Positions 1 to 4,073 of a DNA stretch of 4,073 bases are shown here, in pieces; the first letter of the stretch is position 1, and each line of letters opens with the position of its first letter. This DNA is from a virus. Taxonomy: Duplodnaviria > Heunggongvirae > Uroviricota > Caudoviricetes. Location of the stretch: IMG/VR virus record IMGVR_UViG_2737471819_000015. One strand, 5' to 3'. The position numbers were made by a program, and so were the translations under genes. The notes under the pieces were generated by a model. It had not been told where the DNA came from and did no database searches. It saw only the letters and a list, made by a program, of their open reading frames with translations.

Positions 1-278
1 TCATTCACCGCCTTCTGCAGTACTTCCGGATCGTAGTCACGACCGTCACGCGGAACAGGGATATGGCTTACCGCCTCCTTCACCATCTGCTCAAGCATCG
101 GACGCACATCATCGCCCGTCACGCACTTCTGTAATACCACAGACAGGGAAGCCAGTTTTTCTTCAAACGTTTGTGCCTGCGCGGCTATTTTCCCCTCAAA
201 TGTGCGCTGTAAATCCGCCAGCACTGCGGAAAATTCTTCACCCAGCGCACGGATAATGGACAGTTCACGTTCATTCAT
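1..278 (-). CDS. Hypothetical phage protein, N-terminal fragment (first 92 codons; continues beyond the window start)
   Basis: ATG at 276..278 overlaps the portal stop (ATGA arrangement). Translation MNERELSIIRALGEEFSAVLADLQRTFEGKIAAQAQTFEEKLASLSVVLQKCVTGDDVRPMLEQMVKEAVSHIPVPRDGRDYDPEVLQKAVN... The frame stays open to the window edge. GGGGGA lies 10 nt upstream of the ATG. Identity not recognised; by position it could be a minor head / head-morphogenesis or adaptor protein. Confidence 0.55.
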   Translation of the reverse strand, partial: MNERELSIIRALGEEFSAVLADLQRTFEGKIAAQAQTFEEKLASLSVVLQKCVTGDDVRPMLEQMVKEAVSHIPVPRDGRDYDPEVLQKAVN

Positions 279-1639
279 TTTTTCAGAATCCCCCTGAACA
301 TCGCCTTCACCGCATCATGCTCTGTTTCGCTTATGGCCTTATTACCGTCAGACGCGCCCTCCTGGCGTGTGCCTGACGACGTTTTCCCGGAAGACGCGAA
401 CGGATCCTCACGGGCATCACGACGGGACAGCGCCTCCAGACTGTAGTTCTGCTGCTGAAGATACAGTGCATCACCGCCGGCAAGGGGCGGCAGGTTCTCA
501 CGTTTACGGGCCTCATTGGGCGTGAGAAGCGTATTTTTCACCGATTCACCCAGCGTTTTCATGCGACGTTCGCTGTCCATTCTCAGCAGCGTGGTGACGT
601 CAAACTCCGTGCTCTCGTTTTCCCCTGTTTCCAGCGCCTCATCCAGTAACAGCTCAATGGACTCAATCAGCGTCTGCAGACACTGGGAATAATACTGCTG
701 CTCCAGCGCCTCCACGTTGTCACTGGAAGGCGGCTGGCCAACGCCAATCTTGTAGGCCGGGACACGGAACACCGAACAGACAATTTCAGCCGTCATCTTC
801 AGTTGTTCCACCGTCTGCGCATCCACCGGTGAAAACGTCGTGGGGTTATATTTCGCCCCGTTGCTCAGGATCGCCGTTTTCCCCGCATTTTCGCCGGTAT
901 ACCCGCTGTCCCAGTTGCTCTTCAGTTTTTTCGCATTTTCTTCCGTTATACTGCCGGGGATCTCAATCACCCCGGACGGCCTGCCGCCATTTCTGAAAAA
1001 AGACGTTGAATTTGCCTGAATATGATGCCCCTGCGTGGCCGCCAGCCCGGCAGCATACACCGGCGGCAGCCCCACAAGCGGATGAAAAAAACAGTTAAAC
1101 CGGTCGTGGATCACTTCCCTGGCAGGCACCGTCACCGCCTCCGTGATCCCGCAGTTCCGGTCCGGCGTGATGCGGTAGAACACCTCGCCGTCATCCGCCA
1201 CCAGAGGTTCAACCCGGCTCCAGTCCAGAATACGCAGTTCTTTGATCTGCCCCCGGGAGTTACGGATTTTCAGCACCACCGTATTGCCGTGACGCAGTTT
1301 GGCGTTCAGCCACAGTTCAAAAAACTGGATGCGGTTCTGCTGTGCATTGGGACGACGACAGAGGCGGGCAATATCCCCCCGGCGCGTTTCCCTGCGTATC
1401 CCCTGCGCATCCGTCTGCATAAGACGCAGCCGCATTTTGGCGATATCCTGGGATATCAGCGAAATACATGCAAACACCGCATGAAAGGAGAGGACGGCTT
1501 CAGGATCGGCTTTCACGCCCTGCTGCCAGGCGCCGGCAAAGGGCTCAGCCACCGCCTGAAACAGGCTGGTCCAGCCCGCCTCTCTTACGTCACGTCCTGA
1601 TTTCTGGTTTTTTCGGGTTCGCCGTAAAAGGTTCCACAT
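275..1639 (-). CDS. Phage portal protein, HK97 family (454 aa)
   Basis: The full-length frame carries the motif series I associate with HK97-type portal proteins: AVFACISLISQDIAKMRLRL, RPNAQQNRIQFFELWLNAKLRHGNTVV, FFRNGGRPSGVIEIPG, NWDSGYTGENAGKTAILSNGAKY, DAQTVEQLKMTAEIVCSVFRVPAYKIGV, TLLTPNEARKRENLPPL. Start ATG at 1639 with GGAG 8 nt upstream; stop TGA at 275..277. Confidence 0.85.
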   Translation of the reverse strand: MWNLLRRTRKNQKSGRDVREAGWTSLFQAVAEPFAGAWQQGVKADPEAVLSFHAVFACISLISQDIAKMRLRLMQTDAQGIRRETRRGDIARLCRRPNAQQNRIQFFELWLNAKLRHGNTVVLKIRNSRGQIKELRILDWSRVEPLVADDGEVFYRITPDRNCGITEAVTVPAREVIHDRFNCFFHPLVGLPPVYAAGLAATQGHHIQANSTSFFRNGGRPSGVIEIPGSITEENAKKLKSNWDSGYTGENAGKTAILSNGAKYNPTTFSPVDAQTVEQLKMTAEIVCSVFRVPAYKIGVGQPPSSDNVEALEQQYYSQCLQTLIESIELLLDEALETGENESTEFDVTTLLRMDSERRMKTLGESVKNTLLTPNEARKRENLPPLAGGDALYLQQQNYSLEALSRRDAREDPFASSGKTSSGTRQEGASDGNKAISETEHDAVKAMFRGILKK

Positions 1640-1806
1640 TCGCCATGCTCCGCATCACGTTTCTTTTTCTGACCTGCCGGACGTCGCACCGTGATGTACT
1701 CCGCCTTTCCCAGGCGAACCAGCACCTCCGCACACGGCTGTGCCACATCACGGATATCCCCGGCCCGGGCATCATGCGTGCCCTGCAGATATCGGATCTT
1801 TGCCAT
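1585..1806 (-). CDS. Hypothetical small protein (73 aa), uncertain gene; overlaps the portal start by 55 nt in another frame
   Basis: ATG at 1804..1806; translation MAKIRYLQGTHDARAGDIRDVAQPCAEVLVRLGKAEYITVRRPAGQKKKRDAEHGECGTFYGEPEKTRNQDVT. Codon choice looks gene-like (CTG, CAG, ATC, GAT, GCG), unlike the Arg/Trp/Cys-rich third frame. A consensus SD (AAGGAGG, 1837..1843) lies upstream but is separated from the ATG by the 22-nt hairpin plus 8 nt. No homology is recognised. Confidence 0.3.
   Translation of the reverse strand: MAKIRYLQGTHDARAGDIRDVAQPCAEVLVRLGKAEYITVRRPAGQKKKRDAEHGECGTFYGEPEKTRNQDVT
1640..1651 (-). promoter_or_regulatory. Ribosome-binding site of the portal gene (GGAG, 8-nt spacer, ATG)
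   Basis: Minus strand reads GGAGcatggcgaATG; GGAG at 1648..1651, ATG at 1637..1639. Confidence 0.5.
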
Positions 1807-1850: not shown

Positions 1851-3212
1851 TCAGCCGCCGGACGCACTGCCATAGTTCACTCCGGTGATCACCGCCACCG
1901 CCGCGGTACGGCGACGACGCCAGTTGATCCAGCGCTCCGCACGGATGGCCACGCTGCCTGTCTGGAACATGGAAACCAGCTCCACCGGCGACGGCGTGGT
2001 ACTGTCGCCGGTCGGCTCAGACTGCATTTCCAGTGATGCCTCGCGGGACATATCCACTGCCACGCCGCCGTCATCCGCCAGATAAATATCCGGGGCATTC
2101 ACCAGCACCAGCTGGTCACCCACGTACTGGGAGACAATCACCGGCAGCCCCTGGAAGGAGCCACCCAGCAGGGTCATGTCCGGGTATTCTTTCTGACCCA
2201 GCGCATTTTTACGCATGGACAGCGCCAGAGCATTGGTGCTGGACATCAGCCAGACCGCACCGGTGGGCTGCAGGTTTGCTGCAACAAACTGTCCAAACGC
2301 CGCCTCTGCATCCGCATCCGGGTTACCGCTTGAGGCCGTGCCCTTCACATCATGGGTGATGGACGCCGGGGAGACATCTGCCACCGCCGCTTTTTTCGGG
2401 TCCACAAAGTCTGTATCCAGACGCGCCACCACCGCTTCCGCCAGCGCATTACGGACCAGTGCATCAGCAGCCGGACTGGAAAAACGGATCAATTCTTCCG
2501 TCAGTACCGCAATGGCCGACACCTTCGCATGACTGAAGGTGATGGATTCAAAATCAAACTTCGTCAGGGGTTTTGCCTTACCCTCACCCACCCAGCCGGC
2601 AGCACCGCCCGACACCTGGGCGTGCACACGGATATTGAACGGCACCTGACGAAGTGCAGGGATCCCGCCCTGACCAAATCGCCCGATAATGGTCTGAGGA
2701 CGCAGGTAATCAATAAAGTCCTGTGCGTATTCCTGATATTCAGACAGGCTGCCTGCCCACTGCGGATCCGTGGTGGTCCCCGCGCCCACTGCCGATTTCA
2801 GGACATGATGCAGACGACTGTCATCCGGATACTGACGACGGGCCACTTCCAGGGCTTCAGAGCGGACACCTTTAGCCGCAGCCAGCGATTTGGCAAAACG
2901 TGCGAAACCAATCCCCTTATCCAGTTTCTGCTCCACACGGATCACAGGCGCAGAAGCCACCGCGGCCACATTCCCGTTACCGGCCTGTTTCACCGGCTGC
3001 GCCGTGGCGGCCTTACCGGCTTCCAGTTCACGCAGGCGCTTCAGGTGCGCATCCACCTGACGTATTTCCGCTGCGGTGTTGTCGTAATGCTCTTCCTCCT
3101 CCACATCCAGCGTGCGCCCTTCCTCTGCGGCTTTGGTCATGACCTCCTCAAGGGAGGCTGCCAGTGCTGCACGCTTGTTTTCAAAACTTTTAATCTGTTC
3201 GCCAATATTCAT
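1851..3212 (-). other. Major capsid protein unit with N-terminal delta/scaffold-like segment (residues 193-645 of the fusion ORF), beginning at internal Met193
   Basis: The in-frame ATG at 3210..3212 opens a segment (MNIGEQIKSFENKRAAL...) that resembles the N-terminus of stand-alone HK97-type capsid proteins with a delta domain. It is preceded by AAGGA (3223..3227) with a 10-nt spacer. Confidence 0.5.
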
Positions 3213-3788
3213 TATGGTCTTTTCCTTATGAAAAACGGTTGTTGACTGTGCCGCAGCGCCGGCAGAAGATGCGATTTTCACCACCGGTTTCCGGTTGCCG
3301 GACGCGGCAGAAAACTGGCGGTCGTAAGATTTAATGGTCCGGATGGTGCATTCCGCATTCGCGGGCACGGTGACGGCAGACACCTCCATCAGCTCCCAGC
3401 GCAGAAAATGCAGTCCGCCTCCGTCCAGAAAGGTGTATTCATGAGGACGGAAGCCCACGGACAGCCCCCTGACCAGCCCGGTCTTAATGGCCGCCCAGGC
3501 CTCATCCAGCCTGGCAGCCAGTTGCGATGGCATATCCGGCACGGGCTTCGCCAGTGTTGCCGTGATTTCCAGCCCTTCGCTGACCCGGCGCACCGTACAC
3601 TGCCCCACCGGGCGGGAATGGTCATGCTGCCAGAGAAACGGGATCGCACTGCCAAACTCCGCGCCCTCCGGCTCCAGGATGTCACCATCCCGATCCGGAG
3701 AAGGCGTTGACGCAATCCCGGTGATCACCCGCTCATCCTCACTGAAGGATTTCACCGTCAGCAGGGAGCAGGCCCGTTTAAGAGTCAC
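1851..3788 (-). CDS. Fused prohead serine protease / delta(scaffold)-like coiled coil / HK97-fold major capsid protein (645 aa)
   Basis: Single uninterrupted frame. Residues ~20-155 carry prohead-protease (HK97 gp4-type) hallmarks: IPFLWQHDHSRPVG (His-containing motif), RGLSVGF (candidate nucleophile Ser110) and LMEVSAVTVPANAECTI. Residues ~193-300 are charged and coiled-coil-like (MNIGEQIKSFENKRAALAASLEEVMTKAAEEGRTLDVEEEEHYD...LKRLRELEAG). Residues ~300-645 look like an HK97-family capsid protein (WVGEGKAKPLTKFDFESITFSHAKVSAIAVLTEELIRFS...; C-terminal SVAIRAERWINWRRRRTAAVAVITGV). Strong SD plus GTG start; TGA stop at 1851..1853 followed in frame by further TGA and TAA stops. Confidence 0.85.
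   Translation of the reverse strand: MTLKRACSLLTVKSFSEDERVITGIASTPSPDRDGDILEPEGAEFGSAIPFLWQHDHSRPVGQCTVRRVSEGLEITATLAKPVPDMPSQLAARLDEAWAAIKTGLVRGLSVGFRPHEYTFLDGGGLHFLRWELMEVSAVTVPANAECTIRTIKSYDRQFSAASGNRKPVVKIASSAGAAAQSTTVFHKEKTIMNIGEQIKSFENKRAALAASLEEVMTKAAEEGRTLDVEEEEHYDNTAAEIRQVDAHLKRLRELEAGKAATAQPVKQAGNGNVAAVASAPVIRVEQKLDKGIGFARFAKSLAAAKGVRSEALEVARRQYPDDSRLHHVLKSAVGAGTTTDPQWAGSLSEYQEYAQDFIDYLRPQTIIGRFGQGGIPALRQVPFNIRVHAQVSGGAAGWVGEGKAKPLTKFDFESITFSHAKVSAIAVLTEELIRFSSPAADALVRNALAEAVVARLDTDFVDPKKAAVADVSPASITHDVKGTASSGNPDADAEAAFGQFVAANLQPTGAVWLMSSTNALALSMRKNALGQKEYPDMTLLGGSFQGLPVIVSQYVGDQLVLVNAPDIYLADDGGVAVDMSREASLEMQSEPTGDSTTPSPVELVSMFQTGSVAIRAERWINWRRRRTAAVAVITGVNYGSASGG
3324..3731 (-). 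other. Prohead protease domain within the fusion ORF (approx. residues 20-155)
   Basis: Candidate catalytic His in W53-Q54-H55-D56-H57 (codons at 3618..3632) and candidate catalytic Ser110 in GLSVGF (codon 3459..3461); codons were checked directly against the sequence. Domain limits are approximate. Confidence 0.7.
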
Positions 3789-3799
3789 ATCAGCCTCCT
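3789..3799 (-). promoter_or_regulatory. Ribosome-binding site of the capsid/protease gene (AGGAGG, 5-nt spacer, GTG start)
   Basis: Minus strand reads cAGGAGGctgatGTG: a consensus Shine-Dalgarno at 3794..3799, 5-nt spacer, GTG at 3786..3788. The ATG at 3788..3790 is out of frame and is followed at once by TGA, so GTG is the only usable start for the 645-aa frame. Confidence 0.6.
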
Positions 3800-3800
3800 G

Positions 3801-3825
3801 AAAATAAAAAAACCGCCGCAGCGGT
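3801..3825 (-). terminator. Terminator-like element on the coding strand between terL and the capsid gene: 5-bp GC-rich stem with tetraloop followed by a U-tract
   Basis: Minus-strand RNA would read ACCGC-UGCG-GCGGU (plus 3812..3825; the arms are exact reverse complements) followed directly by UUUUUUAUUUU (plus 3801..3811). The stem is short, so strength is uncertain; the tract could equally be an A/U-rich translational enhancer in front of the capsid ribosome-binding site. Confidence 0.35.
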
Positions 3826-3851
3826 CCATGATGGTTACAGGGTGAACAGGG

Positions 3852-4073
3852 TTATATGAAAAAAACCGCATATTCTTTCTTTTTCGGCTCCGGATTCAGG
3901 GACATCAGGGATACCGCATTGAAGAGCGCCATCAGCGGGTCAATTTTCCCCCGTCCGCTGGCCTGTTTGGTAATAAGGATGGCGTTACCTTTCGGCTCCA
4001 CCCGGGCATTGCCAACGCACCAGGCCATCAGTGGCTGACCACCATGCACCAGCACTCCCTCAGCCAGTTTGCG
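3852..4073 (-). CDS. terL: Phage terminase large subunit, C-terminal fragment (5' end lies beyond the window edge)
   Basis: The minus-strand frame is open from the window edge (codon phase fits exactly at 4073) to a TAA stop at 3852..3854. Translation is RKLAEGVLVHGGQPLMAWCVGNARVEPKGNAILITKQASGRGKIDPLMALFNAVSLMSLNPEPKKKEYAVFFI. The pattern ...W..GN.....GN....K.....KID...AL..A.. is what I recall for the C-terminal end of HK97/lambda-type large terminases (memory of the family, not a search). The 'M' in the ORF track at 4055 is a GTG and is not the true start. Confidence 0.65.
   Translation of the reverse strand, partial: RKLAEGVLVHGGQPLMAWCVGNARVEPKGNAILITKQASGRGKIDPLMALFNAVSLMSLNPEPKKKEYAVFFI

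Follow-up and report, generated by a model that had tools for sequence, protein, structure and literature searches.

The window analyzed here is the whole of a 4,073-nucleotide stretch of DNA from a virus of the class Caudoviricetes (IMG/VR record IMGVR_UViG_2737471819_000015). All its genes lie on the minus strand, and following the 3′ end of the large terminase gene (terL) there is an open reading frame (ORF) of 645 amino acids (aa) that joins a prohead protease in-frame to a major capsid protein (MCP). Within this frame the ATG codon of Met193 stands at the beginning of the capsid part, and comparison with related genes indicates that it is probably a functional internal start, providing nested in-frame initiation within the protease-capsid fusion gene.

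The protease-capsid fusion gene

An initial annotation, made from the letters of the window alone, had described the ORF as a protease-capsid fusion and had proposed that the ATG at 3212..3210 (Met193), lying behind an AAGGA with a 10-nucleotide (nt) spacer, could give rise to a capsid protein lacking the protease. The position, strand and spacing of this site are confirmed (the upstream context is AAAGACCATA). Two products of ~70 and ~48 kDa had been anticipated, and the predicted masses are 69.0 kDa for the full-length protein and 48.2 kDa for aa 193-645. The coordinates of all the features are collected in Table 1.

The fusion itself is well established by profile searches. The N-terminal part matches Peptidase_S78 (PF04586) over aa 48-153 with 34.1 bits, against a cut-off of 21, and so is a member of the Pfam family; its score of 46.6 bits with TIGR01543 lies under the equivalog cut-off of 59, so that it is not an NCBIfam equivalog. 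His55 and Ser110 are invariant across 30 sequences of 37-53% identity, and may correspond to the catalytic residues of HK97 gp4. The C-terminal part matches Phage_capsid (PF05065) over aa 386-635 (52.5 bits, cut-off 24.2) and TIGR01554 major_cap_HK97 (77.3 bits, cut-off 27.5), where the match begins at aa 204. A Foldseek comparison shows that the capsid body resembles the capsids of Bxb1, D3 and HK97, with E-values of 1e-13 to 1e-9, while a sequence search of solved structures gave a marginal match to the Bxb1 capsid only. The model NF045541 'prohead protease/major capsid protein fusion protein' (scaf_prot_MCP2) aligns over aa 48-287 only, with 53.1 bits against a cut-off of 525. Since this is far under the cut-off, the window protein has the same architecture but belongs to a different family.

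The two parts are separated by a linker. In an AlphaFold model that draws on 30 diverse homologues, aa 145-192 have a predicted local distance difference test (pLDDT) score below 50, as expected for a disordered segment, and among homologues the linker contains insertions and deletions and has little amino-acid conservation. Two long helices follow, and after these a further low-confidence segment at aa 266-284; there is also a Pfam coiled-coil match at aa 189-210. Because the predicted disorder ends at aa 192 and the first helix starts at aa 195, Met193 falls exactly at the boundary between the linker and the delta domain, in keeping with the earlier suggestion that it looks like the natural N-terminus of a delta-domain capsid protein.

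Table 1. Features of the window, with positions counted on the whole 4,073-nt stretch
Feature	Position	Strand	Basis or remark
Full-length ORF, 645 aa, 69 kDa	1851..3788	-	Prohead protease, linker, delta domain, HK97-fold MCP; a single coding sequence of the same span in PGAP
Primary start: AGGAGG 3799..3794, 5-nt spacer, GTG 3788..3786	3786..3799	-	
Protease domain, ~aa 16-153	3330..3743	-	PF04586 aa 48-153, TIGR01543 aa 48-154, confident model aa 16-144
Variable A-rich linker, aa 154-192, predicted disordered; also the 5′ leader of the internal start	3213..3329	-	AlphaFold, alignments
Internal Shine-Dalgarno core AAGGA, 10 nt before ATG of Met193	3223..3227	-	
Internal in-frame start ATG, Met193	3210..3212	-	Start codon in 87/87 fused loci; capsid-gene start in un-fused relatives
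Nested ORF, proposed protease-free capsid precursor, 453 aa, 48.2 kDa	1851..3212	-	Delta domain and MCP
Delta (scaffolding) domain helices, aa 195-222 and 229-262	3003..3206	-	AlphaFold pLDDT 84-90
HK97-fold capsid body, ~aa 293-645	1854..2912	-	Foldseek, PF05065
Second candidate GAGGAGG, TC, ATG (Met217)	3138..3149	-	Rejected as start site
terL gene, 3′ end	4073..3852	-	Window
73-aa ORF, PHROG 829	1585..1806	-	Between capsid and portal genes
Portal gene	275..1639	-	Followed by the start of a repeat-rich ORF (1..278)

Conservation of Met193 and its surroundings

The conservation of the site was examined in 87 fused homologues for which DNA is available, drawn from bacterial genomes and viral contigs, having 34-100% protein identity and 74 distinct upstream sequences. 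A start codon is found at the aligned position of Met193 in every one of the 87 loci, 82 being ATG and five GTG; where the residue is valine it is always encoded by GTG. At the protein level, an all-against-all search of 1.8 billion cluster representatives gave 12,339 relatives, of which the best 150 (38-54% identity) were analyzed. The protein is fused in 140 of these 150, and in the fused set the Met193 column contains methionine in 115 and valine in nine, with ~11 more having a methionine a few residues away. Among the same 150 it is the most conserved column between residues 157 and 245.

The Shine-Dalgarno (SD) sequence is similarly retained. A core of at least 4 nt is present in 73 of the 74 distinct upstream sequences, with a spacer of 5-12 nt, and the aligned SD spacing is 4-8 nt in 70 of them. 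The core is AAGGA in the enteric genes (~-5.6 kcal/mol), and GAGGAGG, AAGGAGG or CAGGAGG in distant clades (-10 to -12 kcal/mol). The initial annotation had asked whether Met193 and the purine-rich motif before it are kept among homologues, also at synonymous positions; both are. Of two degenerate copies, that of an Arsenophonus endosymbiont (L021 2480..3400) is disrupted into several frames, although AAAGGA-N7-ATG persists where the capsid part starts, and homologue L110 (1408..1677) has an in-frame TAG within the protease domain.

Conservation of the SD was separated from that of the protein by re-coding the six upstream codons with the same amino acids, drawing codons from the usage of each gene. 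The observed SD is stronger than this synonymous expectation in 72 of 74 cases, with a mean of -7.5 kcal/mol observed compared with -5.6 kcal/mol expected, while at control positions the observed minus expected SD energy is +0.16. The glycine codon within the motif is GGA in all 38 enteric genes, a codon used for only 176 of 1,792 glycines (9.8%) over the genes as a whole. We have thus shown, by comparison of sequences, that the Met193 site is conserved at the nucleotide level beyond the apparent needs of the protein.

The RNA context is equally distinctive. The segment from -30 to +30 around the ATG has the lowest GC content and is the least folded window of the gene in nearly every homologue; the GC content of these 60 nt is ~30%, compared with 55-60% gene-wide, placing it in the extreme ~1% in most homologues. 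The GC content of third codon positions is unusually low in the 12 codons upstream of Met193, with no consistent lowering downstream of it. Folding of 3160-3290 is no better than that of shuffled sequences (z = -0.44), and a special RNA structure around the site was rejected on this basis. An SD core, synonymous constraint and AT-rich unstructured surroundings are, as read from the alignments, the hallmarks of a bacterial translation initiation region. A promoter in the gene would be another way to express the capsid part; no sigma-70-like internal promoter was found in 3000-3900, and an arrangement of the kind used by herpes simplex virus (HSV) UL26.5 was rejected on this ground.

The same site is the start of a gene in relatives where the two functions are not fused. 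Examined at the DNA level, these loci are found in Acidovorax (L025) and Snodgrassella (L026/L029), in two viral contigs (L086 and L101) and in the isolated Burkholderia phage vB_FUB47a. In these the protease ORF stops within the linker, and the capsid gene starts at the codon equivalent to Met193 behind the same kind of SD. The sole difference between L086 and the fused form is a TAA directly before the ATG, while in vB_FUB47a the protease stop lies within TAAGGA, 10 nt before the ATG, with the same geometry as in the window. Among the 150 representatives, five stand-alone capsid proteins start at positions 193-196 of the query. The 'coat protein' of Moraxella phage Mcat12 was also considered, and is not a fusion.

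The nearest relative of eight of ten un-fused capsid proteins is a fused gene, with 51-73% identity, while two Snodgrassella copies pair with each other. That un-fused capsid proteins are mostly nearest to fused genes points to repeated and easy interconversion of the two forms. If the capsid start is still active in the fused state the switch would be near-neutral, with one stop codon sufficing to make it.

Codon usage also changes within the gene. The fraction of optimal codons, by an E. coli-type list, rises from 0.48 over the protease part (aa 2-150) to 0.60 downstream of Met193, and it does so in 34 of 35 enteric genes. The rise occurs for 14 of 18 amino acids, leucine going from 0.34 to 0.67 and arginine from 0.58 to 0.89. 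As a property of sequence, such a rise is consistent with heavier translation of the capsid part.

Probable nested initiation and the alternative readings

Taken with the conserved start and SD, the un-fused genes that begin at the same codon lend strong comparative support to the nested initiation proposed in the initial annotation. The gene would then be two nested genes that share one reading frame and one late mRNA. Initiation at GTG 3788 would give a 69-kDa chimera in which prohead protease, linker, delta domain and MCP follow one another. Ribosomes would also bind the unstructured, A-rich RNA of the linker at AAGGA 3227..3223 and start at ATG 3212, giving a 48-kDa protease-free delta-domain capsid precursor. 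Since both products end in the same capsid domain they should co-assemble into the procapsid, in which the chimera would be a minority shell subunit that carries the protease in covalently. Following assembly, the protease would cut away the linker and the delta domains together with itself, and the ratio of protease to capsid would be set by the relative strength of the two initiation sites. We infer that initiation at ATG 3212 occurs, that the shorter product is the more abundant, and that the chimera delivers the protease.

A number of points weigh against this interpretation. The motif in the window sequence alone is not beyond chance; AAGGA-N5-10-ATG occurs once compared with 0.76 expected, at least one copy is present in 102 of 200 shuffled sequences, and for anti-SD pairing (-6.2 kcal/mol) Met193 comes only 74th among the 637 codon positions of the gene. 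It is conservation across homologues that raises the site above chance, and as these share ancestry, fewer independent observations underlie the counts than their size suggests. Conserved SD-like motifs are found as well at aa ~44-47, 127-129, 397-405 and 545-548, and before Met580. Conserved glycine and glutamate codons thus create equally strong motifs elsewhere, so that SD energy alone does not discriminate, and for this reason the tests were moved to synonymous sites and to the variable linker. The internal SD is moderate in the window and its enteric relatives (-5.6 to -6.2 kcal/mol), that of the primary start being stronger (-9 to -10 kcal/mol), and hence an excess of the short product is not predicted from SD strength. 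The step in codon usage depends on the list of optimal codons used, and could also reflect a mosaic origin of the two halves of the gene. A literature search found no expression, proteomic or ribosome-profiling report on this gene family. Lastly, a 1:1 protease-scaffold product is viable in the case of phage P2 gpO, so that internal initiation is not a physical necessity.

Against the weaker internal SD two observations may be set. In all 11 E. coli-type copies examined the primary start codon is GTG (the 11 shown from other genera have ATG instead), and RNA structure at the internal site is exceptionally low. A weaker GTG start for the protease-bearing form would fit a low ratio of chimera to capsid protein.

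What else might account for the site? The best of the alternatives is that it is a silent relic. A protease gene and a capsid gene would have lost the stop codon that separated them, leaving the old ribosome-binding site (RBS) and ATG unused, and only the 69-kDa chimera would be made, each subunit bearing a protease and all being trimmed by autoproteolysis. The un-fused relatives show that a gene really did, or does, start at this site, the internal SD of the enteric clade is only moderate, and 1:1 protease-scaffold proteins are known in other phages, such as the viable P2 gpO described in a preprint on the archaeal virus HFTV1. Yet a relic should decay, whereas nearly all fused lineages, to as low as 34% identity, retain the start codon and SD amid a linker whose sequence and length vary. 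The constraint on synonymous positions, both in the exclusive use of GGA and in the excess of SD strength over its synonymous expectation, is not that of an unused site. Nor are the fused genes short-lived offshoots, for fusion greatly predominates in the family and is its deep state, and a single initiation site leaves the codon-adaptation step at Met193 unexplained. We therefore regard a relic as unlikely.

A second alternative assigns the conserved features a role in the protein or in how it folds, either as an autoproteolytic cleavage or docking site, or as an SD-like ribosome pause that would let the protease fold before the capsid part emerges. In the model the site lies exactly on a domain boundary, and there is some amino-acid preference at positions 188-189 (K/E/R followed by G/E/A). 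However, selection on amino acids cannot yield the exclusive use of a rare GGA codon, nor GTG wherever the residue is valine. Moreover, the SD core occurs in all three codon phases among the 74 upstream sequences, and runs through unrelated peptides (KG/KGN/KGK, KE/KEK, KD/KDH, QE/QEV, EEG, KEG, QEG, RR/RRK, TRS, LES, TEA and others). A pause site requires neither a start codon 5-12 nt downstream nor AT-rich unstructured surroundings, and the un-fused relatives retain the same motif where its only possible role is that of an RBS. On balance this explanation seems a little less probable even than a relic.

That Met217 is a used or additional internal start is most improbable, for although its ATG (3140..3138) does stand behind a strong SD core (GAGGAGG, 3149..3143) as initially annotated, and is invariant in close homologues of 73-98% identity, the spacer is just 2 nt, the SD is absent from all 21 non-E. 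coli homologues and stems from window-specific Glu-Glu-Val codons, the column contains methionine in 74 of the 150 representatives and otherwise Q, V or L, the residue is inside the delta-domain helix 195-222 of the model, and no stand-alone capsid gene starts there. The coordinates thus stand, while a role as start site does not. Nested initiation at Met193 remains the probable reading.

Gene context, related systems and significance

In an E. coli chromosome that is 98.5% identical, the region belongs to a lambdoid Stx1a prophage and is flanked by terS/terL and head-tail connector genes. The DNA of the 645-aa ORF is 100% identical to that of the Stx1a-converting phage Stx1_121427, 99.7% to that of BP-4795, and ~98% to those of phages 2851, YYZ-2008 and 1717. 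The ORF is present in 1,252 of 5,426 complete E. coli genomes, frequently in multiple copies, and the E. coli cluster of the fusion protein has ~9,900 member sequences. It is named inconsistently as major capsid protein, prohead protease, or capsid and scaffold; in the records examined it is always a single protein.

A number of other features of the locus may be recorded. Between the terL stop and the RBS of the fusion gene, just upstream of the SD at 3799..3794, there is a terminator-like GC hairpin followed by a run of T (3810..3827, minus strand). Such a hairpin is found at the same location in every enteric homologue examined, and its stems vary yet stay paired (CCGC/GCGG, CCCGC/GCGGG, GCCCG/CGGGC and CCCCGC/GCGGGG). 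It is a candidate for a conserved intrinsic terminator or RNA-stability element within the late operon.

On the fusion gene's other side, the 73-aa ORF is conserved and overlaps the start of the portal gene by 55 nt; phage vB_FUB47a has a hypothetical ORF of 58 aa at the matching position. In several genomes RefSeq (PGAP) labels the portal gene as a 2.7-kb 'frameshifted' pseudogene (locus L001 14435..17181). The portal ORF is intact, with 454 aa, and its TGA overlaps (as ATGA) the ATG at 278..276 of a separate ORF of 461 aa. The 'frameshift' is therefore probably an artefact of annotation, though the overlap comes after a run of six A nucleotides. The 461-aa ORF (locus L001 15796..17181, continuing window 278..1 on the minus strand) contains five tandem units of ~54 aa, …DGKSLTPDDVRPMLEQMVKEAVSHIPVPRDGRDYDPDVLQKAVNDAVANIPQPA…. 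In E. coli, many copies of this region carry an extra ~162 nt (54 aa), their matches aligning in two pieces, and this difference would fit variation in the copy number of the 54-aa repeat.

Nested initiation involving a protease has well-known precedents. In the lambda C/Nu3 gene, as proposed here, an N-terminal protease ORF contains an internal in-frame RBS and ATG that give the C-terminal assembly protein alone, and the two starts set the stoichiometry. The Mu I/Z genes provide another established case of nested in-frame initiation of protease and scaffold. The lambda C protease is of the S49/ClpP-like family, unlike the S78 enzyme of the fusion gene. In lambda and Mu, moreover, the protein made from the internal start is a scaffold distinct from the capsid protein, which a third gene encodes, whereas here the nested product would be the capsid protein itself, with its scaffold built in as the delta domain. 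Lambda is named as a nested-protease precedent in the HFTV1 preprint. There, nested products of HFTV1 gp17/gp17.5 were shown by start-site ribosome profiling, and HSV-1 UL26/UL26.5 and related herpesviruses also make nested in-frame protease-scaffold and scaffold-only products. In both HSV and HFTV1 the short form is in large excess and the long form brings the protease into the procapsid. They differ from the present case in that the protease is not fused to the capsid protein, and in HSV the short form has its own promoter and transcript, for which there is no sigma-70-like counterpart inside the fusion gene.

Another close comparison is with HK97 gp4 and gp5, where the protease is likewise of the S78 family and the capsid fold is shared, including a helical delta domain at the N-terminus that functions as scaffold. 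There the protease and capsid genes are separate, in contrast to the in-frame fusion of the window, and the gene order here (terL, protease-MCP, small ORF, portal) is also unusual. Duda and colleagues reportedly found, in work of 2013, that the free HK97 protease is recruited via its own C-terminal part.

Is nested initiation restricted to this family of fusions? The fused architecture has already been catalogued, as PHROG 617 and 4523, as NCBIfam NF045541, and under the SEA-PHAGES label 'major capsid and protease fusion protein'. The literature search gave nested protease/scaffold precedents and papers in which capsid-protease fusions are simply named; no database record examined and no publication found mentions an internal capsid start in protease-capsid fusions, though an earlier description may exist. 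The conserved site runs through the large proteobacterial family to which the 140 fused representatives belong. We also looked at eight genes of an independent fusion family, in actinobacteriophages of ~15 kb (Inspire2, Kels, Penoan, Atraxa, Adaia, MooKitty, Schiebs and Yavru; L113 3704..5287 and L114-L121), and each of them has an in-frame ATG downstream of the protease domain. The ATG comes directly after the domain in six of these, and 40-60 residues farther on in Schiebs and Yavru. It is preceded at 5-10 nt by AAAGGA, GAGAGG or GAGGAG, with a weaker AAGGT in Yavru. These eight genes are suggestive of a wider occurrence of internal capsid starts in fusions, and we lean slightly toward the view that protease-capsid fusion genes generally use nested internal initiation that annotation has missed, and that this prophage is no special case.

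If this is correct, such 'fusions' would really be pairs of overlapping genes, with the chimera serving as a covalent means of bringing the protease into the capsid in place of a targeting peptide. Lineages could toggle between fused and split forms by gain or loss of a single stop codon, with assembly unchanged. Many Shiga-toxin-converting and other lambdoid prophages have the fusion gene as their head gene, and thousands of annotations would be put right by a second product, which would probably be the dominant one. Such a product would account for the building of a T=7-type shell by a gene that apparently forces one protease upon each subunit, and would extend the nested-protease strategy of lambda, Mu, the herpesviruses and an archaeal virus to phages in which the scaffold lies inside the capsid protein. 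It would also give a simple account of the alternation of fused and split genes among close relatives.

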